Assembly (NCBI GenBank): GCA_037379345.1
Contig: CM074515.1
Span: 39,623,743-39,687,742 of the forward strand
DNA: 64,000 nt
Reading direction: 5' to 3'
From: Perna viridis
Taxonomy: Eukaryota
In this document: positions 301 to 61,830 of the stretch, piece by piece
Layout: each line of letters starts with the position of its first letter
How positions within the stretch are numbered: the first letter of the stretch is position 1
The notes under the pieces: generated by a model
What the model saw: the letters and a program-made list of their open reading frames with translations, nothing else
Database searches by the model: none
What the model was told of the DNA's origin: nothing
Program-made: the position numbers and the translations under genes

Positions 301-3300
301 AAATCAAATGCCAGAATGACTTTGCAGAAAGGAACCTTTGTCTGTTTTTCACATTGGAAATTTACAATTTTAATTTTTTTACTTTCAGTTTGCATATAAA
401 ATGACCTAAGGTCAGGACTTCTTCTAAGTAATAATAAATATGATCTGTTTATATGTCATTCAATTCAGCTGTATACATGTATCTTTCTCTACTGTTCCAC
501 AGGTTGTTCAATAATAGAGCTTGCCATAGATAAAATATAGCTATGACTGTATTATCCAAATCTAAGCATAGTTTTTATAAGATAGAAAAGGCAATCATTA
601 TCTCTTTGCCATTGGCATTTATGCTGTAACAGGTCAGGTCCACTAGAATATTTGTCCTGCAAAAGGTAGGAAGAAGATTGACTTTCAAATATTCTTGTTT
701 TTTTTGTTGGACTATGCCTAACAAAACGTTACCAGAAACATCCTTTCTTACCTTCACAATCTTGGAAATCATGTATTTATATTTTAAATAGGTTTGAAAG
801 TCTCGTCCCAGTTTCATTTTCCATACTGGAATTTTCATTGTAGAACGTTTTGAAATCCAACTACCGATCTGGATTTAATTGTTTTATTGTTCATATCATT
901 CCTTACAAAACATGCTAATTTTCACACAGTTTCATGGGACTTCGGTTAAATTTATTTCTATTGATAATTTGGTAGAAAACCCAAAGCATTTCTTTTTATC
1001 TTCTTGTTTCACAACTGAACAGGAAATTTTTCATTTCAATGGAACATTTCTAAAGCTTGAGACAAGTTCGTACCCACTGCTACAATATGCATCAATAAAT
1101 TTTGTCTTGATTTGTCAGTAAAAAATTTATAACTCGATTATTGATACTCTTGTCAGATCAACTTTTATTGAGAGACTGGATATTTTGAACAAGAAATCAT
1201 TGGTTAAGTGGGACCTGGAAAAACAAAACAAAACAAAATGAAAATTCCAACTGAATGTCACTCCCTGAAATTTTCCAGTGCTGCCAAAAAGACATCAATT
1301 GGACAATTGTATCGGGAGAGGACTTCATAAGTGGGATTTCACTTGTGTCCAATCCTACTGCTTTATTTGCAATGAAATATGTTTGAACTACTGGACAATG
1401 CATTACAAGAAGCTTTGCTTTACTTAATCATATAAATTAATTTTGTTGTAATAAATTTGGTAAGGGGTAGAGGTCAAGGAGTTAAATATAGAAGGATTCG
1501 CATCTCGTAAATTATCGCATTATCTCGCATGGTGAGATTGCAGTATACTAGCCACAGCTACTTGTTGCCTATACAGTCAACATTAGGTCATATAAAACAT
1601 TTATATTACAAAAGCAGGGGAAGCTACAACTATAAACATCCTTATATACACAGACCATTTTAATCAATTTAAAGCAAATTTTATGATGATCGTTTGGATT
1701 TTGAAGGAGTTAGAACTTTAATTTAGGAAGAAATGCCTTTCTCGAGGGCACGACTCTGGCCGCCATTTTTTTATATCAACAGTTGGTCAAATAAAAACGT
1801 TGATATCACACAAGAATGGGAGGCTACAGCAACAAGATTTCTGATATACACCCTCGGACCATTTGTGCTCAATTTGAAATAAATTTTATGATTGATCGGA
1901 TTTTTAAGGAGTTTAAATTTTAAATGAGGACGGTGACCACCCTCGAAGGTAGGGTTACGCAGTCAGGAGTCAAAAGAAAGGCTTGTATAAACATTAATAT
2001 AACCATGACAATTGATCTGGTTTGGAAAAAGGAGCTTGAATTTTTAATGAGGAAGGAAGTACGCCTTCGAAGGTGGGACCAGGTTGAAAATTTGATGGAG
2101 ATTAAGGTCTCGAATATCGACGTACTGATCAAAACAAAACATTGAAAAAGTCTGGAAGCAACTTTCGGTGGGATATTTTAATTTGTTTTTCAAACCATAT
2201 GGGTCAGAATACCTACACTTATGGTGATAAAATGTTGAAGCAATGGAAATCATCCGCCATTAAGAGGGCACGCTCAGCATCAACAAAATGCATCATGGGT
2301 AATCTCACTGTATATCACCCCACGCAACATATTTGTTATTGTGCAATGTAAAATTGTGCTAGAGTCCAATCCTTGCTATATATAAATCCTTGCAGAGGTA
2401 TAGATTAAAATTCAATTTTATGAATATACAGCCAATCATTCAGTCAGCAGGCTGATTTCATTTTGTCCAAAATATTTAGTTTCTTACACATGCACATTGT
2501 AGCTTAAAAAAAAACAGAAACGTTTACCTCAATGAAAGAAAATAAACATATAAAAATGCCTGTTTATATATTGTGTGATTTTAAGAAGCATACAACATAT
2601 AATTAAAAAAAAAAAAAAAACATTAGTAAATGATGTGAGCAGGCGTCCACTTCTCCCTATTGTCTCTCTGAAAGAGAAGTCATTTCTCACTGTTTTTCTC
2701 AAGTAACTTGAGACCTGTCGTTTACTTCTGGGATCTCAAGAGTACTGCATTACAATGCAAAATCCTCTATCTATTGCCTGCCTTCACATTTTATCATGTA
2801 GAACGAATTTTTGTCATTTTTATCACTATTTTTACCAGAGAAAGATTTTTGGCTTTTAATACTTGAAATCAAAGGCCTGTAAAAAAGACAAATAAAATCC
2901 ATAAATTTGAATGGTAGACTTGGACCCATTCTCGTGAAACTACAGTCACGTGAAGAGACTTACATACAACATTTGAATAATATGTAATTTCAAGTATGGT
3001 GAGGCTCATGGTCTCTTACGGTTAAATATGCAATGCCTACTCCATAGTATGACAAATTTCAATCCTCTAATAGCAAGCACCGTGAAGCGGTGTGAGCTCT
3101 ACGGTTATTACATGTACTATCTAAATTTCCTTAACTTCTCCAATATCCCAGCGAAAAAAAAAGTCATGACCCTGAAATAAAAAAAACTGACTGTCCTTAC
3201 AGAGAAAATTCAATGTTTTCTTTAATCAAACAAATAAAATTAAATAGGTGAAAACCCATGTTTCAGTAAAAATAGCTGCATTTTTCTAATAGTTTTCGAG

Positions 3301-8387: not shown

Positions 8388-11300
8388 CTTCAAATAATAA
8401 AAATATGCATACCATAAAAAGTTGTGTATATAAACATTTCACGTACATAAATAATTCAGAATAGTATAAAACTATCATGCTTCAAACATATGAAAATAGC
8501 TGTAACTGTGTGAAAGTGTTTTCTTTTGGAAGATAACCTTCCATATCTACTTACAAGCACCTTAAAAAATCCTGGTATACATGTACTATATATATAGTAT
8601 ATCTTAAACACATAGAAAACATGTACTATATATAGTATATCTAGAACATATAGAAAACCTGTACTGTACATAGTATATATAGAACACATAGAAAACCTGT
8701 ACTGTACATAGTATATATAGAACACATAGAAAACCTGTACTGTATAAAGTATATCTAGAACACATAGAATCACACAGAAAACCTGTACTGTACATAGTAT
8801 ATCTAGAACACATAGAAAACCTGTACTGTATAAAGTATATCTAGAACACATAGAAAACCTGTACTGTACTTAGTATATCTATAACATATAGAAATCCTGT
8901 ACTGTACATAGTATATCTAGAACATGTAGAAAACCTGTACTATATATAGTATATCTATAACACATAGAAAACCTGTACTGTACAGAGTATATCTAGAACA
9001 CATAGAAAACCTGTACTGTACAGAGTATATCTAGAACACATAGAAAACCTGTACTATAGATAGTATATCTAGAACACATAGAAACACACAGAAAACCTGT
9101 ACTGTACATAGTATATCTAGAACACATAGAAAACCTGTACTGTACATAGTATATCTAGAACACATAGAAAACCTGTACTGTACATAGTATATTTAGAACA
9201 CATAGAAAACCTGTACTGTGTAAAGTATATCTAGAACACATAGAAAACCTGTACTGTATATAGTATATCTAGAACACATAGAAAACCTGTACTGTACAGA
9301 GTATATCTAGAACACATAGAAAACCTGTACTGTACATAGTATGTCTAGAACACATAGAAAACCTGTACTGTAACTAATGTAAAATTTGGCTAGTAAGCAG
9401 AAACTCAACACAGTATCAATTTGGATAGCAACACGACAAAGCAATGTACTGTTTATCATGAATGTAATAAATAACCCCCCCCCCCAAAAAAAAACCCCCC
9501 AAAAAACAGCTTCTGACATATGTCAAATCCTACAAACAAAAGGTGTCAAAACATGTATTCATATATTTATTTATCTCTGTAAAGAATTGGGATATTTTGC
9601 CATTTTTCTCTCTTAAATTTCACCAAATAACACTTTTGTTCCTCAATATTTATTTTTATTTATTGTAGAACATGTTTGACAGTTTTATCCTGGTGTATTT
9701 GTTCTACGTATTTTTTTAAGCTATGTGCTAATCTCTAATCTTCAATGCAATGATACTGGAAATTTCTATTACTTTGCAAGTATTTCTAGGATGGCAAAGC
9801 ATTCTAATCTTCTGCTGTACAATTCTGCATAGGCTATTTTGTTGTGGTACTGTTCTGTATAGGCTATTTTGTTGTGGTACTGTTCTGTACAGGCTATTTT
9901 GTTGTGGTACATTTCTGTATAGGCTATTTTGTTTAGGTACTTTTCTGTATAGTATATTTTGTTGTGGCACTTTTCAGTACAGGCTTTTTTGTTGTGGTTC
10001 TGTTCTTTACAGGCTATTTTGTTGTGGTACTGTTCTGTATAGGCTATTTTGTTGTGGTACATTTCTATACAGGCTATTTTGTTGTGGTACTGTCTATACA
10101 GGTTATTTTGTTGTGGTACATTTCTGTATAGGCTATTTTGCTATGGTACATTTCTGTATAGGCTATTTTGTTGAGGTACTGTTCTGTATAGGCTATTTTG
10201 TTATGGTACTTTCTGTATAGGCTGTTCTATTGTGGTACTCTTCTGTATAGACATTTTTCTGTACCGGTAATTGAACATTGTTTTAAGTACTGGTAAATCT
10301 GTCTAATCTTTGAACAGTAAAATTTAATGGATATCCAAAACAAACTGACTTTACTGATAAGAAATCTTAGAGCAGGAAGCACTGTATACATTTTTATCTT
10401 TCTTTTTTTTAAACTTGATGGTTGCACTCATGCATTTTTAACTTACCTGGACAAACATTGCATGTGCAATGAAAGGTAGCTTTCTAAGTGTTCTGCCACT
10501 CAAGCTGTGACTTTTTCTGCAAAGAATATAGAAGAAAGGGTAAAGTTATGACAGGCTACACTACAGCTAACGACTATTTGACGATTCCACTTGCCCACCG
10601 TGGAGAAATCAAGTTGTCCACGCTTTGCCCACCCTTAATGGTGTTTACTTAGGAATTAAGATAATTAGGTTTTTATACAAATGAAATGCTTTGAACTCTT
10701 ATTTTCCTTTTTTTTTCTTCTGAAGGCCGACATCGTAATTAAGTCTGTCATTATTGAAATGTAAACCTGGACTAATCAGAAAACAAAGTTGATATAATCT
10801 TTAAAGAAATTCATAAGGCTTTAATTTAAACATTTCCAGTTGCTACATGTATCATGTAATAATATTGTACATCTGACCAGAATGTTACAAATTGTAAAAT
10901 ATGATGTTCAAGAAAATCAAGTATTTGCGAACTCCTTATTTCCCTGACTACCCATTTAACGCTGCTGTATTTTCTTAGTGAAAGAATAGGTTTGAAGCAA
11001 ACGCAGGCAACTTTAACTTATGGTCTATAATTGACCAATTTCAGTATCTTGTCATTTCAAGAAAATTTTAAAGTGGCAAGATAATATGTGATCCAGAAAT
11101 ATTGAACCGCGTAGTTCATGAGTTTTCAAATGCCAACGGATTTAACTATGTATCATCCGATCACACGTTAGCCGAATATAGTAATGGGTGAAAATTCCCC
11201 CTCTTAAGTTTAATATGCAGTTAGTTTTTAAAGATTTAGCGCATAAAAGACGGTTGAACGAATTATTTCTTCTGGTTTTTTCCCTTCACTTAGTTCAACA

Positions 11301-40110: not shown

Positions 40111-40871
40111 TATCCACTACTACCATACGTACTGTATTAATTTATAACCTTAGATTTAACGAACGAGGAGGAATCATCTGGTCTGCCAAATCTTAATTTC
40201 ATACAGCCTAGCTGGCCGAGTGGTCAAGGGCGCTGGACTTGGTGCTGGCAGTGTTGCTATAGATGTCACAGCGGTACGAGTTCGAGTCCCGAGGAGGGAA
40301 CGACCAAAAATTTGCAGCGCAAATCATTTCTTTACGTTTACATATCTTTCCTGTATCAAATTGATCCGATGGAGAAGTGTAGCGGATTCGTCACATTCTG
40401 AGACACACACACACACACATATATATATAATCAAGTCTAATTACACCCCAACTCTACAATCGATGCGAGGTTGCAAATTTGCGATTAAATTTGGTCGCTC
40501 CCTCAGCGGGATTCGAATCCCTTCCCTTCTCTGACATCTATGGCAACACCACCTGCACAAAGTTCAACACTCTAGACCACTCGGCCAACTTGGCTATAGA
40601 TAATATATATAGAAAGGTCTGAAAACTTCCGAACGATGTTACAATTGTCAAATTTAGTGGCCGAGTGGTCTAGGGCGCTGGACTTTGTGCAGGCGGTGCT
40701 GCCATAGATGTCACAGCGGTACGAGTTCGCAAATTTGACAGTTCTAACATCGTTGAGAATTTTCAGACCTTTCTATACGTTTACATGTACATTATCTTCC
40801 CTTATCAATTTGATCCGATAGAGCAGTGTAGCGAATAGAACTGTCAAATTTGCGAAGCATAATTTTCGGTC
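40107..40871. repeat. Cluster of tRNA-headed repeat units in alternating orientation
   Basis: Approximately 40107-40404(+), 40455-40600(-), 40609-40655(-), 40656-40838(+), 40836-40871(-). Separated by (CA)n/(TA)n tracts or microhomology junctions. Confidence 0.85.
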
Positions 40872-40890
40872 AACTAATGACCTCCATCAG
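40864..40890 (-). ncRNA. Partial hammerhead-ribozyme-like core
   Basis: CUGAUGGA-GGUCA-uuagu-UGACC-GAAA downstream of the GIY-YIG fragment. Stem III and the cleavage site are missing. Confidence 0.5.
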
Positions 40891-41400
40891 TGCTTTAAAC
40901 AAACTGAGTGTGTATGAAAATAAATGGTCTGTGAGCACAACTCATTACCTAATTACATTAATACATGTAAGGTATTTAAATTGTATTGACAGTAAACAAA
41001 TATTTTGAACATTGTGGTTTGGTAATCTGAAATGTTGACTCACAGGCAGTAAAGGCTTTTTTGTTAGGTCGCTCCTGTGCCCGTTTAAGCTCTTGTGAAA
41101 AAGCTGTTAGGGTTCGCCAACATATTGGAGACCGCAGATGGGACAGTGAAGCAAATATATCAGATTAGCGCTCTTGCAGTGCACGTTACAGAATAACAGA
41201 ATATTTTGTTGCTAGTGAATAATGACGAGTGGTGCATTTGTTTGCAACATTTACACTGTTTGTTACCTCAGGAGCGATTCTTCTCTGGAGTCAAGTTGAG
41301 CTTAAATATTTCAGCCCTTAAAAGCAGACTACGCAAACTGTCTGACTGTCTGAAGCTAATCATAGTTGGTTCGGGAAAGACCTTGGATAGACTTTGATTC
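40864..41400 (-). mobile_element. Penelope-like element 3' fragment: Zn-linker, GIY-YIG endonuclease, 3' UTR
   Basis: KVFPEPTMISFRQSDSLRSLL...NKQCKCCK...CKSANLIYLLHCPICGLQYVGE...NGHRSD...PVSQHF, with stops and frameshifts. Not in the ORF track. Confidence 0.85.
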
Positions 41401-44584: not shown

Positions 44585-45559
44585 TATATATATATATATA
44601 TATAAACGTCTCAGAATGTGACGACTCCATTCACCGCCTGCACAAAGTCCAGCGCCCTAGACCACTCGGCCAGCTAGGCTATATAAAAATATAGCTTTCG
44701 CTGGCCGGGTCATTCCTCCTTGTAGGATTAAACTAGGGCTGTATCTTTGTGCAGGCAGTGTTGCCATAGATGTCACAGCGGTACGAGTTCAAGTCCCGCG
44801 GAGGGAACGACCAAAAATTTGTCTAGCAAATTTGAGAGTTAAAACATCGTTGGAAATTTTTCGGACCTTTCTATATATATATTAATATTATATATTAATA
44901 TATATAGTCTCAGAATGTGACGACTCTATTTGCTACACTGCTCCATCGGATCAAATTGATACAGGGAAGATATATAAACGCATAGAAAGGTCTGAAAAAT
45001 TCCCAACGATGTTAGAACTGTCAAATTTGCGATGCAAATTTTTGGTCGTTCCCTCCGCGGGACTCGAACTCGTACTGCTGTGACATCTATGGCAACACCG
45101 CCTGCACAAAGTCCAGCGCCCTAGACCACTCGGCCAGCTAGGCTATATAAAAATGTAGCTTTCGCTGGCCGGGTCATTCCTCCTCGATCCGATGGAGCAG
45201 TGTAGCAAATAGAGTCGTCACATTCTGAGACGTTGTATAACATTGATTTGTTGTGACATGCATCATTAATTTGATCCTCTATCCTACATATTAACATCTA
45301 AATGAACTGTCCCGTACCACCATACATCGTGTACTAAGTTACAGCCCTAGATTAATCCTACGAGGAGGAATGACCCGGCCAGCGAAAGCTATATTTTTAT
45401 ATAGCCTAGCTGGCCGAGTGGTCTAGGGCGCTGGACTTTGTGCAGGAGGTGTTGCCATAGATGTCACAGCAGTACGAGTTCAAGTCCCGCGGAGGGAACG
45501 ACCAAAAATTTGCATCGCAAACTTGACAGTTCTAACATCGTTGGGAATTTTTCAGACCT
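44585..45559. repeat. Cluster of young tRNA-headed ~410-bp units, circularly permuted and inverted, embedded in (TA)n
   Basis: 44585-44745(-), 44745-44872(+), 44907-45186(-), 45187-45559(+). A-box 45411-45421, B-box 45478-45487. Confidence 0.9.
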
Positions 45560-45696
45560 ATATATAAATATTACTCACCTTTTTCTGTGTAATCAACTGC
45601 GATCGAAGAATTTGAATAAAGTAATTATATATATATGTTATATATATATATATATATATGTATTTTACAAATGTGCATTCTAAAAGGCCCTGTTAT

Positions 45697-46699: not shown

Positions 46700-46850
46700 G
46701 GTTACCCTACCGGTGCACCTGCTCCATGCTCCCAGTTTTTACTGTAGTGCGATTAGCGCGTTTGCTTTTGTTACTTTGTATGTATTGTTTTAGTTCTTTG
46801 TTGTGTATGTTTGGTATTTTCCCTTGGATTGCTTTCTTTTGATTTCCGCA
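46700..46850 (+). mobile_element. Penelope-like family 3'-UTR fragment (diverged)
   Basis: ttaccctaccggtgcacctg...ccatgctcccagttttt matches 52985 onward and 59500-59560 (rc). Confidence 0.75.
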
Positions 46851-48210
46851 TTTCTGTTTGCTATTGATTTAATGTGACCTGAATCGTTAATTTGATCCCT
46901 AGAAATGGTTAACTGAAATAAATTACGTAAAGGATCAGATTTCAAAATGATATTGTTCACTAGTAGGCCATTGCTTACTTAGAGTGTTCTATCGTTACCA
47001 CTTTTTGCTATCGTCCTAAAGTGTGAAAAATATGTTATTCAAGATTATAAATGTGTAAACTGCAGGACTTCATTTAATTTTAAGCTTGCAAATATCAAGT
47101 TAACTTTTCTGACTATCTGTAATGTGTTTTAGACTACATGTTAGCAGTGTTGATTTCGCAACTTCATGAAATTGTCTTTTGTTACACAAGTTGAAAAGGA
47201 TATCAAATCTTAAAAAAAAAAATTTCTGTACATACATTTATGTATTATTATCTTGCATAGCGCCGACTGTTTTTTTTTCTTTTTCTGTATGCCCATATTT
47301 GTTTATTCGCGTTGTACCAACTAGTTTTTCATTAGAAAAATTAATACAATTTTAGTCAATGCCTTTAAGGGACGGAGCTATCTGTACTTTTACTCAAGTT
47401 ACAGTTTACGTTTTTGAAAATGCACCGTCATGTTGTTATTTTACTGATGTCTTTACCAACGGGAATATACAAGACATTTTATAACATATTATGAGCATCT
47501 GCGGTAAAAATTAAATCACATCCGAACTACATTATCAATTCACTGAGTGATTTTTTTTCAAGAAATGTTAAGACTATGGCAGATTGAAAGGAAATAGATG
47601 ATGACAGGGATAATACAAATGCCATTATGAATTATAATGTAACGAAAATGGTTTCATTCATTCAAACTACCAAGTTAAATAACAAGTTCTCTTTCACGTT
47701 TACTTCAGCACACAGTACTGTTGTAAATTTTATTGTACCCGCTCATAAAACTCGACACAGTTATCTGTCCTGTAGATCAATTGAATTTACTGAGTATTTA
47801 CAAAAAATAGATAGCACCCCGCGACATATATCTCGACTATTTGAAATCGACCTGAATATCGTTTTGGTCTTTTGGCGGGTTTAAGATATACTCTGCAACT
47901 TGGTAGATATTCCTTTCAGAGCCTGGATTAACCCAGGTTAAAAGTCTGTTTGAATTACAGTGGCAACAAGTTAAAACTCTGACATCCATTGTGTTATACA
48001 GAAATAAGACTGAAAGATGTCCTTTCAAGGTTAATATCCGGAGACATAGTAATGGCACAAGGTGTGCAGCATTACGTTTTATACTCACAATATGTTAGTA
48101 GGGGGGAGGGAAACAATACTTGTGACAACACTTGTGTCAAATAGTGGTTTGAAAACTCATTAAAAGTCTTTGACAAAGTCGGGAAAAACGATATGAACTA
48201 AACCCGTTCG

Positions 48211-48281
48211 GAAACGGTCTTCAGTATCAGTAGCACCCCGCACAGAAACGGTCTTCAGTATCAGTAGCACCCCGCACAGAG
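48211..48281. repeat. 34-bp direct duplication
   Basis: gaaacggtcttcagtatcagtagcaccccgcaca occurs twice in tandem. Confidence 0.9.
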
Positions 48282-49451
48282 AAATATACATTTAACTAAT
48301 ATGACGTACCACAAAGGCAAAATAAGAGACAGGAGTTGTAAAGGAATAAATTGTTTGCTGCAGGATCAAAAAGTTTCATCTCACTTAAAAGAAATGCCAA
48401 CGAATTTATTTAAGAACGTACAGCACGTGATTTCTATATACATTTCAACTTTACAAAATTTTGTCATTTGCTTTAGTGGGAAAATAATATCAAACAAAAA
48501 TGCCTGGTCTCTGTTTGCCACGTGCTTGGTATTTATGTTCAAAGAACGAACTAAACTTGCAGTTGAGTCTTGCAGAACGAAATGCAACGTTTGATGTATA
48601 TTTGCTAGATAAATGCATGATTAGAATTGAAACCAGGCATGGTCACTGATAGTCGAGTCCATTATATGGTGACCCTATGTCAGGATGATTAGAAAATAAT
48701 CATATTTACTTTACTTTTTTCAATCGGTAAATTCGCGGAAATTTAAATTGATCATTTGTTTTTTTTACAATGGCCTTGTTATTCACGTCTATAATTTCAT
48801 CTAAAGCAACAGTGTTGATTTTCTATGATTTTCTTTTCAATTGAATTAACGACACAAATGGAAGTCTGTAGTAATACAAAAATAAAATTCTGTTTCAATG
48901 AATTATGTGTGTTACTGAGGTATGTGACTTAACCATCTTTAGATCAGTTTACGTTCAATGAACCACGCATCATGATTAAAAATACTGTTAAACATCTAGT
49001 GCAATACATCTGAATTGAATTAGAGTAAAAGTTTAAGTTATTTAGTGCAGTGATAACCGAATTGTTTTATAGGTTTTTGTCTAATTGGTAAACCTAGAGT
49101 ACCTAATGTTATTGCAACTGCCTATAAATTTCTTAAATTTCTTTAACAATCGTGTTATTATTCAACGTGAGTATTTAACAGAAGAATTATTATATAACGG
49201 AGACAGATTGAGAGCGTCTTGAAATGCCAGTCACTGTTTGTAACATGATTTAACAATTTTTACTAATGTTTAAGGAGTATTACGTAATTCAACTGCACTC
49301 TGATCTGAAATAGGACACTAGAAAAGTTTATAATCGTTCCTTTTGATGATGTTTATCTTATGAAGAGTATTATTTCTACCCTCTATCGTCTTTCTAGAGA
49401 AAATATACCTTTGGTTTGTTCTTTTCAAATTAACTAAAGATTATACAAATT

Positions 49452-49656
49452 ACGCTTATCCTACCGGTGCACCTGGTCCATGCTCACAGTTTTTAATGGA
49501 CTCTGATTTGCCCATTTACTTTTGTTACTTTGTATATATTATTTGGTTATTTTATGTTCTTTTATTGTGTGTGTCTGTTTCCCATGTCCGGTCTTTGTCG
49601 CTGGATTACATTTTTTTTTATTTCTGCTAGAATCTTGCTTCCCTTAATTACTCTTT
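49452..49656 (+). mobile_element. Penelope-like family 3'-UTR fragment
   Basis: acgcttatcctaccggtgcacctggtccatgc...cccttaattactct. Confidence 0.82.
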
Positions 49657-49872
49657 GATTCAGTAAACAGCTCATCTTTCATGTTGATTACAATACTTGA
49701 TATATGTTTCTTTGATTAACATTGCAAAGCGACAAAATGTTTATTGTCAGATTTATTTTTTACAATGCAAGGGTATTAAACAATCGAACAAGAACTGCTT
49801 TATGTTTGACTGACATTCAATGCACTAAACTAAACTAGACGTAATTTGACATGCTAGAAGTAGGTACAGTTC

Positions 49873-49990
49873 TATGATTTTAGTTACTTTATGTTTTTTG
49901 TTGTGTATGTCTGTTTTCCATGTCTGGTCTTTGTCCCTGGATTACATTCTTTTGATTACCGCTATAACCTTGGTTCCCTTAATTACTATT
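49873..49990 (+). mobile_element. Penelope-like family 3'-UTR fragment (short)
   Basis: tatgattttagttactttatg...ggttcccttaattact matches 53041-53158. Confidence 0.8.
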
Positions 49991-50099
49991 TCACTATAAA
50001 CTATGTCATTCCAACAGGATACATTATATTTTTTTGTGAAGCCAACCAGTCGATACTAATACGAGTAACTTTCACTTGTCAGAGAAACCGTCTATGTTA

Positions 50100-50216
50100 G
50101 TAAAAGTACCGGGGTAGAACCCAAAATGTCAGAGAAGCAGTCTTTGTAAAGGTCCCGGGATAGAACCCAAATGTCAGAGAAGCAGTCTTTGTAAAAGTAT
50201 CGGGGTAGAACCCTAA
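50100..50216. repeat. ~45-bp tandem repeat x2.5
   Basis: gtaaaagtaccggggtagaacccaaaatgtcagagaagcagtcttt repeated. Confidence 0.85.
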
Positions 50217-50417
50217 ATATCCAGCGATCGAGGTGATTACGCTACCATCGACGTTGTTAAAGTGATAATGAAGGTTAAAATCTTTTAGTTGTTTTTGCGT
50301 TATATCATTATGACATTATTGTGAATACGTAGAAAAGAAATCGAAAAATTAAGTAGAACTTACTTGATGAATAATAGAGGTGTCATTATATTTCCGCACG
50401 ATGAATACAATAAAGGT

Positions 50418-51180
50418 GTTTGTTATTCCTGTCTATTGTCCAAGTTCATTTATCCAATCTATTATCTAAGTACTTTATTTCTGTCTATTGTCTCAATACT
50501 TTATTCCTGTCTATTGTTGCAGTTCTATTCCTGTCTATTATCCCAGTACTTTGTTCCTATCACTACAAGTACCTTATTCATGTGTATTTTTTCAGTACTT
50601 TATTCCTGTCTATTGTCTAAGTACTTTACTCCCGTCTATTGTTTCAGTTTTTTTTACTGCCTATTGTCTTAGTAATTTATTCCCGTCAGTACATTATTCA
50701 TGTGTATTTTTTTCAGTACTTTATTTTTGTGTATTGTATAAGTGCTTTATTCCTGTCTATTGTCTAAGTATTTTACTTTTGTCTATTGTATCAGTTTTTT
50801 ATTCCTGTCTATTGTCTTAGTTTTTTAATCCCGTCTATTGTCTCAGTACTTTGTTCCTATCATTACCACTACCTTATTCATGTGTATTGTTTCAGTTTTT
50901 TATTACTGCCTATTGTCTAAGAACTTTATTCCCATGTCTATTATCTCAGTACTTAATTCCTGTCTATTGTCTATGTACTTTATTCTCATGTCTATTTTAT
51001 CAGTACTTTGTTACTTTCTATTGTCTAAGTTCTTTAGTCCCGTCTATTTTCTCAATACATTATTCCTGTCAGTACCTTATTCATGTGTATTGTGTCAGTT
51101 CGTTATTCTTCTCCATTGTCTCAGTACTTTATTCCTGTCTATTTTTAAGTACTTTATTCTTGTAAATTGTATCAGTTTTT
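50418..51180. repeat. Degenerate ~26-bp minisatellite
   Basis: Recurrent tcagtactttattcctgtctattgtc. It produces the spurious Cys/Tyr/Leu ORFs at 50364-51185. Confidence 0.88.
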
Positions 51181-51784
51181 CGTAACGTTTTGTTAATAAT
51201 AGTCCTGAACGTGGTAATCTTTGAATTCCCTGTTGAATAGTAGACATGGTATCTTTTGTTGAAAAATAAATTAAATTTGAAATAACTTTTCAAATTATCT
51301 CAATGTTTGCTGATAAACAATTATGATATTCTATTTCCATCATAGTGAAAGCTATTACTAAAAAGACAGGACAGTAGTATATGAACAATAAAAAGGGGAA
51401 TAATGAACTTTCAAAAGTTCAAAAACTAAAACAAGCAGAATGTTTCTGTCGTTTACAATCAATAAATGAAAAGAAATCAACATAATTGTACGTGGATTGC
51501 TACGTGTACAATGCATCTAAAAAGGTGTCACAATTTCTCTCATAGTGACGGTAGTTACAGCATAATGATGGACTAAGAGATTATTACCAACTTAATATGA
51601 AAAATTACTCGAGGCAATTACCCCAGATGAAAAGAAGAGTGGTCATTAAGATCTATATGAAAAAAAATCAGAAATCATGATTCAAGTTTTATTTAAAAAG
51701 TATTTCTAAAAGCAATGTTTCATGCATTCATATTTTTTGAATGTGTTTAAGTGAATGTGTTAAATAAATTCAATTACATGAACA

Positions 51785-53158
51785 GTGGAATTTCCATTTG
51801 GAAGAATTTCTAGTATCTCTACAATTCCCCATTTTCTGTTAAATCCGATTCAAAAACAATTCATCGTTGTTACTCTAAAACGGATGGAACATTTAGATGA
51901 AAATACCCAGTGGCAGAGATTATACATACTTTGCATTAATTCAATGTGGATCCTAAAAAAACTCTCCTAAAAGATCTTTTGGAGACAATCAGTTCACGAC
52001 TATTATCAGAATATAATAGCATTGAAAACTATGATTTGTTAACACTGTATACTTTTATTCCCCAGACTCAGTTAAAATCCCGACTTAAAAACATCTTTGT
52101 TTTTCCAAAGAAGATGGTACACCTAGATACAAATATATAGATCTTCGTAGAGATTCCTCATATTTTGTAAGAAATAATTCCAAATCATCTTCCAAAGATG
52201 TTTACGAAATGCTGAATATATTATCGACAACATATTTGTACAATGTGGTGGACGCGTTTTTCAACAAACAGTCGGCATTCCAAATGGGAACAAATTGTGC
52301 TTCTCTATTTGCTGACCTATTCCTTCACTCTTATGAGGCTGACTTTATAGCTGATCTGATCCGAGAGAAAGAATATCGTTTAGCTAGATCATTTAATCCT
52401 TTATAGTTTCCGCTATATAGATGACGTATTATCTTTAAACAATCATAATTTATAATTTAACAAAAAAAAAAAAAAAACAAAAAAACAAAAAAAAACCTTG
52501 AGATAAAGGATATTACAAACACTGTGAAGTCAGCATCATATCTTGACCTACACTTAGAAATCGATGGTAAAGGAAAACTAATGACCTAACTTTACGACAA
52601 ACGTGATGACTTTTCATTCAGAATTGTCAACTTTCCTTTCATCTGTGGCAACATCCCTTCAGCACCTGCGCATGGAGTGTTTACATCACAGCTTATACGT
52701 TATGCCAGAGCTTGCCGAAACTACGCAGACTTTTTGTATCTCGCTAGAATTCTAACATATAGGCTTCTGGAACAGGGTTATGTTGCTACAAGATTGAAGT
52801 CATCACTACAGAAGTTTTATGGTCGTGATCATGAACTCGTGGATCGTTACGGTGTACCCATCTGCACCATGAAAACTGATTTGTTCAACGTGTCATAGTA
52901 TTCCTTTCCTCTTTAATCGACCCCGGACTTGACTTTTTATGAACAATTTGGGGGGGGGGGTGTTTCTAGAAAAGCAGAGGACGCTTACCCTACCAGCGCA
53001 CCTGGTCCATGCTCCATGCTTGCTTTTGTTACTTTGTATGTATGATTTTAGTTACTTTGTGTTCTTTGTTGTGTATGTCTGTTTTTCATGTCTGGTCTTT
53101 GTCCCTGGTTTACATTCTTTTGATTACCGTGATAACCCAGGTTCCCTTGATTACTCTT
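51785..53158 (+). mobile_element. Penelope-like retroelement, 5'-truncated (RT and 3' UTR, no C-terminal endonuclease)
   Basis: INSMWILK, YDLLTLYTFIP, QMGTNCASLFADLFLHSYE, FRYIDDVLSLN (~52407-52440), SASYLDLHLEID, SQLIRYARAC...KTDLFNVS* followed directly by a ~260-nt UTR. Internal A-rich tract at ~52455-52496. Confidence 0.9.
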
Positions 53159-53159
53159 T

Positions 53160-53830
53160 TGTAAAACACGATTCCAAAATATTGTCTTCATATAACGAAG
53201 AGGATGTTGTCAACGTGCAGCAACATATTTGTCAAATGAGGTGGACATGCTTTCCTCATACTTTGTAAAAAAACTTATTCCAACTTTATAGTTGATCTGA
53301 TCCAAAAGAAGGAACATCGTTTAGCTAGATCCTTTAATCTCAGTTTCCGCTATATAGATGACGTATTATCGTTAAACAATCCTAGTTTCGGGGATTTTAT
53401 ACATCGCATTTTCTCCAAAGAACTTGAGATAAAGGATACTTCAGACAATGTGAAGTCAGCTTCATATCTAGAGATCGATTGTAAAGAAAAACTATTAACT
53501 GAACTATAAGACAAACACGATGATTTTTAATTCCGTATCGTCCACTTTCCTTTCATCTGTTGCAACATCCCTTCAGCAGCTGCGTATGGAGGTTTCATAT
53601 CACAACTCACATGTTATGCCAGAGCTTGTGGTAACTGCGCAGACGTTTTTTTTTTACAGCGTTAGACCTTTTACAATTAGTCCTCTGGAACAGGGTTATG
53701 TTGCTACAAAATTGAAATCATCACTATAGAAGTATTACGGTCGTCATCATGAACGCTTGGATTGCTACGTTGTATTCATCCCGAAAACTGATCTTGTTAT
53801 GTGTCATGGTTTTCCTTTCCTCCTTTGTCT
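53160..53830 (+). mobile_element. Second, tandem Penelope-like RT fragment
   Basis: FRYIDDVLSLNNPSFGD (~53344) and LEQGYVATKLKSSL. Abuts the 3' end of the previous copy. Confidence 0.85.
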
Positions 53831-54037
53831 ACCCTGGGTTTGACTTTTTATGAGTATTTTTATGCAGACATCTATTCTTACGATGTTTAGGCAGATTGTA
53901 AGAGATATGAAATATGAGCAATGTGAAGTTGGTTCGTTTGACATGCATTTGATATTTATTTTACTTTCAATTGACATTAAGTTCAATTTAATTAACGTTC
54001 AATTTCGATGTAAAAAAGTAATTTCATAGTTAAAAGA

Positions 54038-54392
54038 CTTGGCGGGGCGATTTTGACACAAAACTTGCATATTTATATTTGAAACGACTTCACCCCTTCC
54101 GCCCTTTTACCCGAAATGATCAAACAGCCACTGTATAGGAGTTATAGTACTGGAATAGGGCAACAATCGACAGTCAATCGATACTCGATGCCTTGAGATT
54201 GAAGTCGCTCACCGGGGTTCAAAATTTGGCGGTCGGGGCGATTTTGACACAAAACATGCATATGTATATTTGAAACGACTTTTACCCCCTTAACCCGAAG
54301 TGTATCAAACAGCCACTGTATAGGGATTGTAGTACTGGAATAGGGCAACTATCGACAGCGAATCGATACTTGATTCCTAGAGATTGAAGTAG
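54038..54392. repeat. ~188-bp tandem duplication
   Basis: ggcggggcgattttgacacaaaac...tagtactggaatagggcaac...gagattgaagt occurs twice. Confidence 0.85.
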
Positions 54393-57317
54393 TGTTCACT
54401 AAATGTATAAAAAAGTAGCGCCATTGTGCATTGCAATGAAATAAAAAGTCCGCAAAGTATTGAGTGATTTACATTGTAAACCTTAGTAGAATTATAACAT
54501 TTTTTTTTCAAAGTAATATTTACTAATTTTATCGAAGTTGTTTCAGGGCCATGACTCACGTGTTCTATTGAATATTTTTTGTTCACGTAATAAATATTGA
54601 GAAATACTTTTCGTGATTAAAAGTTTGGATAATAAAAACGCTTCTACTTCCATTTTACGACCAATTTGCTTTTTTATAACCGACGTAAAATATTATTGTT
54701 GTTTTGCGTCATTTTCTACATTATCTAATTAGTTATTAACTTATTTGTTATTCAGTGTGATTGGTTATAAACACATCCTATTCTATCTCCTGTTGTAATG
54801 TAATTGTCGCTAGATTTCGTTCGCTTCGGTTTCCATTAGTTCAAACTCACAAACAAAAACATAAGAAACTCATTCTATTTATTTGTTTATTGTTAATGAC
54901 ATTGCGCAAAATGATAATTTAAATTTAATGACTTTGATCTGTAAAATCTCAAATACGTTTATTTATCCGCACAAGGTTTATATACTAACACCTAACACAG
55001 TAGTTTGTTGATGGACAGCCATGGCAATCAAGTGAAAAAGTACAAATCTCTGCAACAGACATTCAGTTGACTAAGTAATTCTCGAAAGAAAAATGGATTT
55101 AAATGACATGTTTTGGTAAGACTAATGAAAGAAAAACAAAAGAATTTTCCACTTCATTGGGGAACATATTGAATATAGCGAGATCCTTTACAGGTAATTT
55201 GAACGTCGAATAAGCAATATTAAGTAGAGACAACTAATTATTTACTTTACGTATGAACATCATACAAGAATTTGCAATATTCATATGATTGGATTATTCA
55301 TATGATATGATTAGAGAGTCTATTTGTTCTATTTGAACTTTCAAGCACAAAAAAATCGGCATAATTGAAAGTAAGTATAATTTACTTAACCTTGCACTCA
55401 CTTATTTCAAATTTTCGTATTCAAAATACTTCTCATACTGAGAGAAAATACAAAGTTTTTTACAATTAAACAATGAAAGTTCTTTACAAGTGTGTTAATA
55501 AATATTTGTATAATTCAACAATGTAAAGGGAAACATTCCATATTTTGAGTGTTGAGTAATTCTGTACTTTTATTGATATAGTGAAAAACGCCGTTGACAT
55601 GTTTGAGAGAAACACGCATTTTAAGTCTGAATCCATATAAAATTCAGAATCTGCAAATACAGAAGGTATTCATGGTAGAAAAACCCACCAAACAAATGCT
55701 TTTTTGTCTTCAAACGAGATAAGTATAGTCAACTATAGTCCGTTCTGATTACAGATTTAATTGCCAAATAAATTAACCAAATCAAGCACGATTACTCATG
55801 CAAAGTACCCATTTCATGTACAATCCATTGAATTTTTTTATCTTTAAAGGGCAACAAATGAAGGACAAGCTTGGTTATATGGACTTAAACTCTTTCTTAA
55901 AATTAGATTTGGTAGTTTTTTCACAAGCATTATTCGTCTCCCTTCTGATTTTTAAAAAGACTGCTTCTTAACATGTTTCTACATACATCGTGTATCCTTT
56001 TTATGTCAGTGCCTAGGATTCTCTTAAAATATATAGGTATAAATATAGAAAATATTCATGACGTCACAATAACTGACCCTTTTGGGGAGAACAATCTCTC
56101 ATGAAGGCTAGTGGTCATGAGATTGAATACTATTTCTTCTTCAATTTAATATAATATGAAAGACATTTCATTTTTGCACTTCAGAATATGCCAGTTCTTT
56201 ATTTTGTTGTTAAGAATTTTTCCCAGGTTTGTAAACAGTGGTGGGGGCTAGGGTAAAAAAATTTCAGCATATTTTCACATTGCGTGTAAAGAGGCCATGG
56301 AAATGGCAAAAAAAAAAAATGCGATTTGTCGCGTGGAGAATGTAAAATGAAAAGGTGTCCCCAATAATAATTATAAAAACTAAAACGATTATTGCAACCT
56401 TGTAAAAAGATAACTTAAAGAACAAAATTGAGGATTGAAAGTACATACAATGTTTACTTTATGAGAACGTCTCAATCAATGTCGTTCCTTTAACTTCCGT
56501 CCAAAACTCAATTCTGAAGACAAAAAATATTAAAATGACAGAATTTTTAGGTAAATTAACAAATACATTTAAGGTTAAAAAGAACATATCAAATATTTTA
56601 ACATTCATACATTTTACTTTATTTTTAGTTTTACGTGTACTTCTATTTGATTTCATGTGTTATTTTCGCTTCGTTTATGATCATCAGATTGTGTGCATTG
56701 AATGCCACTCTCAACTTGATTATCCTTGATTCTAATATATTTAAATCATTATTTTATTCGTACATTCGTACTCTGTACGTGTTTTCACTTATCCGACAAC
56801 TAGGCACTTTAACATCTTGTCAGCCCTCACAGTCTCATACAAGTTTTAATAAAGCTGTTAATATTAACAGCAGAGGTACCTTGTAACAGTTTATTAAACT
56901 ATTGACCAATAATTCTGAAGAAAATCTACTGTAAAACATATAATTAAAACTGGCATTTAAAATGCTAATGGAAACAAAGAAAAAAGGTGAAGCATAACAA
57001 ACTGTTAAAACTTCAATAGTTCTTAACCGTAAAAATTAATACGAGCTATAATACAAAAAAGTGACATTTCAATAAGTGACAAATATGATAATTGTCAAAT
57101 CAAAAAGTGTATGAAGTAGTATTGAAAAGCAACATTGATTGGCTTTTGCCATAGATATGAAAAACAAACAACATTCAAATAGTAAGAAGCACAAAATACG
57201 TTTTTATCAGACATATCTACAAACTATATAAAACTAACACAAACAGTGGGAATGGTAGTCTGCATCGCATTATTTTACCACAAATGAAAAAAATACATTC
57301 AATGGGAGAGACACAAA

Positions 57318-57452
57318 CCAAGAACAATATATTTGTATCTAGGTGTACCATCTTTTTTGGGAAAGCAACGATGTATAATGTTTTTAAGTCGGGATTTTAA
57401 CTGAGTATGGAGAGTAGAAGTATACAGTATTGAAAAATCAGAGGTTTTAAGG
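57318..57452 (-). mobile_element. Isolated internal Penelope-like RT fragment
   Basis: Matches 59963-60095. Confidence 0.8.
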
Positions 57453-59361
57453 TTTTAAAAGTATGAAAAGGTCCTACATTGGGCAGTATTGTTAATCCGT
57501 ACTATAGTTCACATTATTTCAAAACAAGTTCTACTGTATTAAATAAATGTTACTTTATTGATTCAATATCAAAAGGCTCTTCGGTTGAGCCATTTTGTAA
57601 GTCATAAACACGGGTACAAATGTCTCTCTAAACAGGAACTATAATTTACGGAGTTGATAACGAATTATATCTGCATATTTCAGAAATAAAACATAGTCGT
57701 CAAATCAGGGGGAGAATTTTCCTTTCTTTGATTTGTCTTTGAAATTGCCCATATGACATTTTATCTCATATAATGACTACATCATTATTGGGTCAGCAAA
57801 AGGTTTTATAAATTATATTTCAACCCACATATTTTCAAGTTGTCTTGAGTTCTAATTGTTTTGAACTAACACAATGGTTCTCCCTGAAACCCACATAAAT
57901 TTATTTAGAAAGATGCAATATCCCTAAATGTGTGGAGGTGAGGTATGTTATGATTGATGTCAGAGAAATTTAATGTTAAGGTATTTAGATAAAAGCAAAA
58001 TCACAAGTTCAGGAGAAAAAGAAGGATGATGAATATAATTATGTCATTCAAATCATTTTCTAGGATTTTGATTGGTAAAAAGGAAGTTTTTAACATGAAC
58101 ATGAATGAACAGCGAAATATACCACCGTATTCAAAATGGTAAATTAAAAAGAGACTATTCGTATAACCCGTTATTTTCAGTTCCTATATGTTCTCTCAGA
58201 GGAAGATCCCTACACTTAAATAAAAACCATTCGATGTTCTCAAATTCGTGACAATATATAAATGATGCGGAAAAAACCTTACTTTTACGTCACTTTATTT
58301 TGGACCTTTGATTGTAAAATTGATATTATTGGACTATTATCGGCGATTGATTCGTTAAATATATCCATAACCATAGCTATGAATATTTTTACATCCTCCT
58401 ATTCTGTACACTCTTAGGACGTATTTTGTAACTTCAGGTGTAAAAAAAAGAACACATCTGTGGATATGAACGTAAATAAGTTATAATTGATTTTTTATTA
58501 AAAAAAAGAATTAAATTTATTAATTTACCAATATCTTCGCTCAATACACACATAATCTTGAAAGTAGCCTCATAAATGAAATATAGTTTAACAATAGGAA
58601 GTTGTAAGGCAGTTAAATTTAAAACAAAAGGAACGCCTAATTTAATAGAAAACAATATGTGAAGAGTAAGCTATCGATCAAGAACGAGTAGTGTCGTATC
58701 ATACCAGATTCTAGAAACTTCAGGTGTGGAAGTAGGTTGATTTTATGCATCAAAATCAGACGCGATTATACTCCCAAGAAAATACATTCACCACAGAAGG
58801 CATGTAACACAATGAAAGTGTATTTTCTCGTATTTATCAAATACATTTCAATTAAAAGGAACATAATTTATTTTTCATAAATAAGTGCATTACTTTCTGA
58901 TTTGTATGTTAAAGATCATATCTGTCCTTATTTTCATTCTCAATATCAAGTCAATATAGGACCCCCCCCCCCCACATGACAACAAAAAACGTTTTGGCAC
59001 ATTCCACATGCAAACAAATGTCATTAACATTCTTAACCAAAGTTATGGAAAATGAACCCGCAATATTTAAAATACACCAAACTGTCCCTTTGTCTCCTAC
59101 ATTTACAACAACACTATTGCGCTTAAAAATTTGAATTATAAATGTGCATTGCATGACCTTAGTTTAGAAGAGTACATCTAGAACGCCTTGACTTGTTTTT
59201 TTTTACAATTCCTCAGAAGTAGACTCACTATTAGATTGAGAAAAAGTGTTACGTATTTGATACAATGTTGCCTTTGCAACCTCAACCACTGGATGAATGA
59301 TCGACCTTAATCAATATTCAAAGATGTAAAAGATGCAAAGTTTTTCCCTTCTCTTCATGAC

Positions 59362-60890
59362 AGAGTAATCAAGGGAACCAAGGCCATAGTGGCAAACAAA
59401 AGAATGTAATCTAGGGACAAAGACCAGACATGGAAAACAGACATACACAGCAAAGAGCATAAAGTAACCAAAATCATACATACAAAGTAACAAAAGCAAA
59501 TGGGCAACTCGGACTCCACTAAAAACTGGGAGCATGGACCAGGTGCACCAGTACGGAAAGCGTCCTCTGCTTTTCTAGAAACACCCGCCGAGTTGCTCAT
59601 AAAAAGTCAAGTCCGGGGAAGACAAACGAGGAAAGGAAAACCATGACCCGTTGAATAAATCAGTTTTCATGGTGCAGACGGATACACCATAATAATCCAC
59701 GAGTTCATGATGACGACCATAAAACTTCTGTAGTGATGACTTCAATCTTGTAGCAACATAACCCTGTTCCAGAAGTCTATTTGTTAGAGTTCTAGCGCGA
59801 TACAATTCGCCATTTGAATGCCGACCGTTTGTTGAAAAACACGTCCACCACACTGGACAAATATGTTGTCGATTAAAAATTCCAGCATTTTGTAAGCATC
59901 TTCCTCTGTATATTTGGAAGATGATTTGGAATTATTTCTTACAAAGTATCATGAATCTCTACCAAGAACTATATATTTGTATCTAGGTGTACCATCTTTT
60001 TTTTGAAAAACAATGATGTATAATGTTTTTATGTCGGGCTTTTAACTGAGTATGGGGAATAGAAGTATACAGTGTTGAAAAATCATAGGTTTTAATGCTA
60101 TTATATTCAGATAATAGTCTTGAACTGCTTGTCTCCAAAAGATCATTGGAATTGTTCAGGATCTACATTGAATTAATACCACTACGGGAGTAACAAGTGT
60201 TTTGGTAGGACTGCAGCCCCTCTTTGACAGTTGTGAGGATAGAAGTTAAAAGTGTTGAAAGAGGTTTGGTGGTACATTTTGCAGATCCAGCTTTGAAACG
60301 TTGTTTGTATGGATTTTTCTGGAGTTTAGGAATCCAGTATATAGACGGTAAATCACAATCATTGTCCTTGGTAGAGAGACCAAAAGAGGATAGCACAGAT
60401 TTATGGTTTTCCACGATCTCTTCTTTGGAGAGTGTGGTAGCAGTATAGGTCTTATTACTGCTATTATTTTCTACGACTATCTCTGATAGTAACCATTGGA
60501 TGTAAAACGTTTTACAGACAAAAACAATGTTGTTTTGGGCTTTGTCTGCTGGTACGACAACATATTTTTCATGTATAGTAGACAATCGTTTTGCTACATC
60601 GGGGTCTTTGAAAACTGATGAAGGCTTGGCACTCATTGATCTACTTAAAACTTTCATTCGTTTCAAAATTAAAGACCTCACGGCCTTTAACCACTCTGGC
60701 AGAGAATCAATGTCTTCTTGTTCTCGTTTTATCCATTTTCTTGCATAGTCCTCGACGGCATCCATAAGAACTTTAAAGTTATAATTCCTATTTATGGAGC
60801 GTGATTCATGGTACTTGGGACCTTAAGAAAGGATATTACGCAGAGATTCGTTTTCGATGATGGTTAAATCTCCCGTAACGACGTGGCCAG
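59362..60890 (-). mobile_element. Penelope-like retroelement copy with an internal deletion of the RT catalytic region
   Basis: 200-aa ORF 60163-60765 (VVVPADKAQNNIVFVCK, LPSIYWIPKLQKNPYKQRF.AGS.KC.TKPLS). Continues YDFSTLYT.IPH, then jumps at ~59802 to YRARTL..RLLEQGY. Full 3' UTR to ...GATTACTCT. Confidence 0.9.
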
Positions 60891-61830
60891 AAAAATGAGA
60901 AAAATGATGTTGTCTTTGTAGACAAAGAATCTAAAATTCTTATAAAAAGAGCTAGGAATAAAATATAATTCGGATAATCCTACATACAAACGTAGTACGT
61001 TCAACAAAGATAATATCCCAGCTAACCACAGGTCCTTTATGGCCTTGTTGAATATACATTCAATGAAAATATGAGGATTTACCTTATTTGTATTGGATTC
61101 CAAAACCAGAAAAAAATCTCAACAAACAAAGGTACATTGCATGATCATCTAGTTGTTCATTTAAAGAGCTGTTTGTAAGGCTCACGAAGATTTTGTCCGC
61201 TGTGACCAGAAAAAAAAATGCCGTGAAAGCCTTTACTCGCGTAGTAGTATAAAACATACGTGGATTAACCTAGAGCTGAAGTTAACTCCATATTTTTGGG
61301 TTTTTTTTATTTTTGCAACAATATATATTACCTTAATCCACGACAAATTGATACTCCGTCTAAAAGAAACCACTATCAAGGATCTGACTGCAAGAATGGA
61401 TATTTTTACTAATTTTCTGTTTTATGCCGCGATTCTACATATTTATTTACCACTACAGAACGGAAAGACAAAAGTTACTACACCGAGCGACAGAGGGTCA
61501 GTTTGTTTGAGTTTCCCCCTGACAACATATATTTGTCGCTTTGGGAAAAACACTCCTTCAACAAAATATGGGCATTCCAATATAAGCGTTAATTATGCTC
61601 CCTCCTATCTGATCTGCTTCGTTATTTATATGAATATGAGTTCCTTAAATATCTTGTGAAAGAAAAAAGGATATACAAGCTGAATCCTTTTATTTCACTT
61701 ATCGATATATTGAAGATGTTTTTTTCATTGAACACTAAAGCACTAAATATGAACTATCGGATAAACATGTCATGCGATTATTTATCGACCACAGTTTATA
61801 ACCATAGAGATAACTGACAACGCTTCGTTA
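60890..61830 (+). mobile_element. Older, highly decayed Penelope-like RT copy, head-to-head with the previous element
   Basis: Remnants NDVVFV, YWIPK...KQRYIA, GIPI..NYAP, YRYIEDV. Confidence 0.7.

Follow-up and report, generated by a model that had tools for sequence, protein, structure and literature searches.

A hammerhead-bearing Penelope-like element joined to a tRNA-headed unit in Perna viridis: probable nested insertion and likely shared machinery

In a 64,000-nt stretch of the AT-rich, 723 Mb genome of Perna viridis (C5:39623743-39687742; henceforth referred to as the window), three repeats meet at positions 39193-41389: a hammerhead-bearing Penelope-like element (PLE; family G), a tRNA-headed unit (U) and a second RT family (R). 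The initial annotation had explained the point at which G runs into U by template switching between the two RNAs during one reverse-transcription event, which would imply shared machinery. The locus therefore raises the question of how the join arose and, independently of the answer, whether G and U are moved by the same enzyme. Throughout, positions within G and U are coordinates on working references built here, and searches of the DNA for relatives scored the best 40 candidates each. The hammerhead word of young G copies occurs 261 times in the genome; from the first 90 of these exact matches, in listed order and lying on contigs C1-C5, 87 young loci were retained after removal of the duplicates L220-L222 (10 of the first 100 listed matches were not fetched anew). 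Abundance was estimated from 600 kb of evenly spaced genome pieces (L122-L181), in which G formed one cluster, U nine (0.45% of bases) and R 80 (about 6% of bases), making R ~13 times more abundant than U.

The features of the locus are collected in Table 1. On the minus strand, 40895-40836 reads (A)AGCA CTGATGG A GGTCA TTAGT TGACC GAAA ATT A TGCT TCGCAAATTTGACAGTTCTA, and this fused G/U word has a single match genome-wide, at the locus itself. The join of a G hammerhead to the unit is therefore real and occurs once, although it had been misplaced: it had been put at a GACC(G/A)AAA microhomology, whereas G family copies go on from there as GAAA ATT(T/A) TGC(C/T) CATTATAT (ten other G copies with the GACC GAAA form likewise read on into ATT..GCT-like sequence), so that the 3' part of the hammerhead, ATTATGC(T), is derived from G and unit-specific sequence begins only at T40855. 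What follows had been taken for the tail of the unit and turns out to be 20 nt from U ~104-123 and then U pieces in the opposite orientation. On the minus strand G runs to 40860, and TGCT is followed by the 20-nt sense stretch of U; next come U 214-104 and 71-1, both inverted, U 108-155 in sense orientation and what remains of a TA tract, and after them UB, (TA)n(CA)n, inverted UA and R. As the initial annotation had anticipated, the GIY-YIG Penelope family does have a full hammerhead at this position. The family form, GGCA CTGAAGA A GGTCA TTTGT TGACT GAAA ATT T TGC(C/T) CATTATAT, shows the features of a minimal type I motif (CUGANGA core, stem II, GAAA, UH and a stem I of 4-5 bp), and the window copy is complete except for a G at core position A9. 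Folding of this copy recovers stem I and stem II (z -2.45; 8/200 shuffles).

Table 1. Features around the G/U join (positions in the window)
Feature	Position	Strand	Remark
Old 5'-truncated G copy (linker Zn motif, GIY-YIG remnant, start of 3' UTR/pLTR)	40857..41389	-	
Minimal type I hammerhead motif (predicted)	40856..40895	-	architecture as in PMC4209133
Hammerhead stem I, 5' arm	40895-40891	-	
Hammerhead core CTGATGG	40890-40884	-	G where the family has A9
Hammerhead unpaired A	40883	-	
Hammerhead stem II	40882-40868	-	
Hammerhead GAAA	40867-40864	-	
Hammerhead ATT	40863-40861	-	
Hammerhead H17	40860	-	predicted cut 3' of H17
Hammerhead stem I, 3' arm	40859-40856	-	
Imperfect G/unit homology, 16 nt	40856..40871	-	crossover between 40860 and 40856, TGCT shared
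Sense patch of U, 20 nt (U ~104-123)	40836..40855	-	exact inverted copy of 40726-40746
Young U pieces, opposite to G	40658..40836	+	U 1-71 (40658-40728) fused to U ~104-214 (40727-40836), internal deletion
U 108-155 piece (likely primed end of the young insertion)	40601..40655	-	ends at first preferred U end site; short TA remnant 40607-40601
Older unit subfamily copy UB	40441..40600	-	starts at leader TATAGCC; 15% from young majority
(CA)n(TA)n tract	40403..40440	.	UA and UB meet there tail to tail
Older unit copy UA, internal deletion	40107..40402	+	5' end adjoins R at 40107; 9-16% from young majority
Old RT fragment, family R (Naiad-like), truncated at both ends	39193..40106	-	not the hammerhead-carrying family

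The G copy in the window is a ruin: ~243 nt of family sequence are missing at ~41015, stops and frameshifts are many, and translation of the minus strand of 40857-41389 gives the linker and the GIY-YIG region piecemeal. Its search returned 632 candidate relatives. The family is represented at locus L187 by a near-intact frame of 897 aa (L187:2206-4896, minus strand), a single ORF with RT plus a GIY-YIG domain at its C-terminus, a CX2-5CxxC motif upstream of the latter (CGDKRCKCC) and a DKG motif (PADKG); its profile matches (RVT_1, E 3.8e-6; GIY-YIG, E 1.5e-4) both lie just under the curated cut-offs. Judged from its sequence, G is a Neptune/Nematis-type, EN+ Penelope-like element. The 5' ends of G copies pile up at reference positions 2916-2944, just upstream of the hammerhead (41/64 listed), which marks a pLTR of ~215 nt, and at L198 the pLTR passes into the beginning of the ORF. 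Many G copies are solo pLTRs, some of them in head-to-head palindromes. Immediately before the frame at L187 stands a U copy in sense orientation, with TATAT at the join, and at L016, L022, L033 and L193 G copies are interrupted by another repeat, one end of which is GCCCCGTGCAGGTCC and the other (AAAC)n.

U is a permuted tandem monomer of 409 nt, the tail of which reads through into the leader and head. The starts of its copies lie as far as ~190 nt and more upstream of the head, and the tRNA head is not at a fixed 5' end. Over the A-box region, 22/23 nt of the head agree with a tRNA-like gene array on C8, the same pattern also finds tRNA-Leu genes, and tRNA-derived A and B boxes are present; U carries what is, by sequence, a tRNA-Leu-like promoter. 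Long tandem arrays of tRNA-Leu-type genes lie at C6:6.66-6.78 Mb, C7:14.45-14.54 Mb and C8:24.30-24.36 Mb (101 pattern matches). ARAGORN found no tRNA in the window and did not call U itself; Rfam models gave nothing above chance on the young unit and, on the window, only a MIR821 match, for which the fold-back at 40592-40793 is responsible, and a second, weak match. The U monomer contains no hammerhead and on that count is not a retrozyme; a hairpin in its leader (GGCCAGC-GAAA-...) was considered as a ribozyme and dropped for want of a CUGANGA core. Regular target-site duplications were absent at U (a non-TA repeat of at least 7 nt occurred in both flanks at 5/58 clusters, most of them AT-rich), and no empty paralogous site was found among 255 clusters. 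Head-to-head U/U pairs occur in 28/58 clusters and G/U pairs of this kind in 0/58. With tandem copies, head-to-head pairs, two end sites and the (TA)n target of its presumed helper, U has the insertion anatomy of a Penelope-like element. Elsewhere in the window, 44596-45566 holds a young fold-back cluster of five U pieces, the long ones 96-98% identical to the majority.

The relative ages of the joined parts bear directly on whether one event made the window junction. The G copy departs from the majority sequence of its family at 73/535 columns (50/375 and 23/160; 13-14%), and the joined unit pieces differ from theirs at 7/202 (1/23, 4/108 and 2/71; Fisher p = 3e-5). The result holds when G is compared with an older subfamily (14/129 and 20/160 columns, 11-13%) and the 48-nt piece, U 108-155 (4/48 columns), is counted with the unit (34/289 vs 11/250; p = 0.003). 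Divergence from the nearest neighbour is likewise 12.9% (20/155) for G and 2.6% (7/266) for the unit pieces, and no close source copy of the window G was found among the best 40 candidates per search, the best others reaching 84% over 337 nt and 91% over 99 nt. Since UB, UA and R lie 9-17% from their own young majorities, the cluster as a whole is an old nest holding one young insertion. This four- to five-fold gap between G and the unit argues for two events, not one template switch, and the proposed switch finds no support at this locus. It is nevertheless a local result: at 21 other direct G/U joins both parts are co-aged (0-6%), so that the age test orders the parts only in the window.

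The sequence at the crossover points the same way. G (GACCGAAAATTATGCT) and the unit (GACCAAAAATT-TGCT) are in register at the join over 16 nt with 14 matches, one mismatch and one gap. Scored from the join this homology reaches 11, a score of even 10 being attained by 0/58,636 sampled pairs of G cut and unit position (every third unit position), whereas an equally good match anywhere between the two sequences is common (85/100 shuffles). A match somewhere is not rare; a junction sitting right on the match is. Both diagnostic positions of the homology are of the G type (among units, the variant TGCTTCGC was seen 24 times against 89 for TGCATCGC). Had unit cDNA used the homology to jump to G RNA, unit bases would be expected at these positions; annealing of cut G DNA to unit cDNA would instead leave G bases up to the 3' edge of the homology, and this second course probably fits better, since G bases are what is found.

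We therefore favour, as the most probable explanation, that a young unit inserted later into the TA-repeat tail of a resident old G copy, in a nested insertion whose joining was aided by homology. A G-type RT/GIY-YIG enzyme would have nicked the TA tract between the old G and the old UB copies; one strand would have been primed at U site 1 (40655-40608) and the other inside the U RNA, giving the inverted pieces at 40836-40658. Priming on two strands has a counterpart in twin priming. The cut DNA end on the G side could then have annealed to the unit cDNA through the 16-nt imperfect homology, been extended by 20 nt and been joined to the inverted U piece. No G sequence would have been lost if G had its end at the hammerhead cut site beforehand; otherwise a deletion would have removed 70-155 nt of its pLTR. 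A locus with the same type of join is L296, at which a G copy lies inside R with 35 bp of target missing and a 3-nt overlap at its 5' side, and ends on TATA.

The position of the crossover sits uneasily with nested insertion: it falls at the predicted self-cleavage site, where a jump to a cleaved G RNA would have put it. Under that alternative, which we regard as improbable, the RT copying unit RNA would in a single event have jumped to a G RNA with a 3' end left by hammerhead self-cleavage. G-specific sequence does stop exactly at H17 (40860), and G copies in general pile up ending 1-8 nt past GAAA (10 of them, compared with 16 in the 54 nt that follow; p = 0.0009). This pile-up, at reference positions 2974-2981 (L225, L305-L310, L021, L239 and L289), often falls on (TA)n. 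Genome-wide, ten loci have TA at most 8 nt from GAAA, one of them an internal deletion and two duplicates, so that 9/10 are not simple internal deletions; the control of 7 loci over the 27 nt upstream is an undercount, since it requires a longer upstream match. Such ends may be a trace of self-cleaved RNA used as template or may reflect overlap of AT sequence with the target. They also include the form seen in the window, there being a class of G copies in which GAAA-AT(T)(T) is followed at once by TA at the copy's end, and the window G may therefore have ended at the predicted cut site before U arrived. Direct G/U joins are common besides (16/87 listed loci) and co-aged elsewhere, which a single event would also explain. 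Set against this, apart from the divergence gap and the missing source for G among the candidates scored, are the G in place of core A9, the G rather than unit bases held by the homology, the occurrence of the junction only once in the genome, and the behaviour of an anole element (PMC11167929), for which hammerhead mutants left insertion in vitro unaffected and no reads ended at the cut site. It is likely that the hammerhead took no active part in the window join.

Two further explanations dispense with a jump between RNAs. Two independent insertions standing side by side across a TA tract could have been fused by a later repair deletion running through the 16-nt homology. Internal deletions do occur in both elements of the cluster (of 243 nt in G, and at 40728 and 40325 in the unit pieces), microhomology deletions are reported for Penelope copies (PMC3846280) and the homology is unusually long. 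But the sense patch, at no more than 20 nt, exactly repeats an adjacent piece in inverted form, more like a product made at insertion, and L296 has target loss and a short overlap at the 5' side of an insertion; we consider this course of events unlikely, though slightly less so than the jump. That the junction is an assembly error between two repeats is very improbable, as the same kind of direct join was found at 16/87 other listed G loci and neighbouring joins are bridged in independent runs; no contig from another run is listed across 40857, where repeats swamp the search and its outcome is uninformative. Nor did these runs show an allele of the locus with an empty site, a result that carries no weight for the same reason.

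If nested insertion accounts for the window, one-event chimeras may still exist elsewhere, as suggested by the co-aged young joins and by U patches that are not local: short patches at G 5' ends (35 nt at L229 and 20 nt at L249) differ from the neighbouring U copy. Across the 87 listed young G loci, U touches G in 37, in 16 of them with no TA spacer, and R touches G in three, two directly. Free 3' ends lie on (TA)n of at least three repeats in 48/98 cases for G, 113/175 for U and 1/90 for R. Compared with background TA tracts near U (6/77; p = 3e-7), contacts are strongly enriched; compared with tracts of at least five repeats (5/22) they do not differ (p = 0.14), and a further tract set gave 15/559. 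The suggestion that chimeras exceed chance is thus borne out, G/U chimeras being far above genome share, although much of the excess may follow from the shared TA target. Head-to-head pairs at these loci are mostly of one kind (19 G/G, three G/U and one G/R), and G and U are nested in both orders across TA tracts. Direct joins of G to U cluster at G 3103-3121 (L231, L244, L269, L278 and L043), and four of these sit at CCCATTAAG, an ATT site of the kind that the anole PLE endonuclease prefers. A short G copy at L271 has, at its 5' end, one G/U junction three times over and then in inverted form.

The ends of the two elements are alike in a more specific way. Of 140 walks in G, 45 stopped at one site and 50 at another, and U ends likewise fall at two sites (42 and 43 of 138 walks, with 17 more at site 1 of the next monomer), and all four sites are preceded by AGAC-(N)-TT-(N0-2)-TATA, at a spacing of 88 nt in G and 83 nt in U. 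The motif, which was defined after the four ends had been seen, precedes 7/11,030 background TATA sites. Overall alignment of U with the G pLTR is not significant (88/1000 shuffles score as well). Because G and U have in common both the TA repeats on which they land and a signal at their ends, they are likely served by the same enzyme, and the part of the initial annotation that posited shared machinery is sustained by the common (TA)n target, the end motif at two sites, Penelope-style inversions and the enriched G/unit contacts. As described in PMC11167929, a purified anole PLE nicks AT-rich DNA, its own pLTR included, and extends the two strands, with two sites inside the RNA as starting points; taken with the shared ends, these properties suggest that U is likely carried by G or a close relative as a non-autonomous passenger with a Pol III promoter. 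A fuller scenario, to which we give less than even weight, would have U capturing the twin start signal (AGAC-TT-TATA) of its helper, a dimeric Penelope enzyme sometimes co-inserting G and U RNA (L199, L229, L249 and L275), and hammerhead-cleaved G RNA serving as template in vivo.

The helper candidates compared for U were families G and R, and R is also the partner in the second join, at 40107. That join had been described as linking a truncation point of a Penelope RT to another unit copy; it is real, being bridged by contigs in 4/4 runs from three studies, but the RT belongs to R and not to the GIY-YIG element. Nor does the GAAC overlap ascribed to it stand, since the R majority reads TCTTT, not GTTC, before the join, leaving an overlap with UA of at most 2-3 nt. 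The 40107 join says nothing about G. R has CxC and DKA motifs, and the 2.4 kb scanned contain no hammerhead; its 3' end is fixed and lies off TA (1/90). It adjoins U in 3/57 U-anchored clusters, once directly, in line with its genome share; with a different target and no enrichment beside U, R was rejected as helper. Further R copies lie at window 46702-61146, and at L217 an R copy sits within G with a duplication of ~9 bp. The tandem repeat arrays at window 8579-9372, 9817-10257 and 50418-51180 are unrelated to the G/U join.

The junction itself, so read, is an ordinary nested insertion; it is the G/U pair that bears on how Penelope elements choose RNA and start copying. A non-coding passenger sharing just an end motif of ~12 nt with its likely helper is a natural test of that signal, and a near-intact helper frame is at hand (L187). 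In the literature outside subscription journals and Repbase we found no published hammerhead-less, tRNA-promoter passenger of a PLE, which is no proof of novelty, and supplements of papers may hold a consensus that matches U or G.

Among known systems, G resembles the Neptune/Nematis-type PLEs, which carry minimal hammerheads in the pLTR (PMC4209133, PMC8557442). The likeness is one of motif layout: RT, a CX4CxxC linker motif, C-terminal GIY-YIG and DKG (PMC8557442), and a minimal hammerhead with a stem I of 4-5 bp, an unpaired base before stem II and a palindromic AATT for stem III (PMC4209133). Partial tandems and inverted 5' copies are a further shared trait, whereas the two preferred ends of G lie 88 nt apart, a greater length than the 30-40 bp tail described for that type. 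Both G and U resemble the Anolis Poseidon element in the AT-rich target, the extension of both strands and the two internal start sites (PMC11167929), and the mechanism described there explains head-to-head pairs and nesting in an element's own pLTR. The Poseidon start site is not homologous to its target, whereas the ends of G and U carry TATA and sit on (TA)n, and the anole assay is not reported to have included a passenger RNA, which U is presumed to be here. R is likened to the Naiad clade by its CxC and DKA motifs and by the lack of a hammerhead in the 2.4 kb scanned (PMC8557442); it differs in having ends off (TA)n and no enrichment beside U. U is like the non-autonomous Chlamys PLEs such as MRC1, which according to PMC8557442 are non-coding and pLTR-like, with head-to-tail copies moved by a PLE; these generally share 3' sequence with their helper, whereas in U the sequence shared is just a short end motif, and the promoter is tRNA-Leu-like. 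It is also like the schistosome Sm-alpha SINE-like elements, with short tandem units and a Pol III promoter inside the propagated unit, and like animal non-LTR retrozymes, again with short tandem units and with a dependence on PLEs that has been proposed (PMC6765202, PMC7229834, bioRxiv 10.64898/2026.07.22.740005); unlike both, U has no hammerhead.
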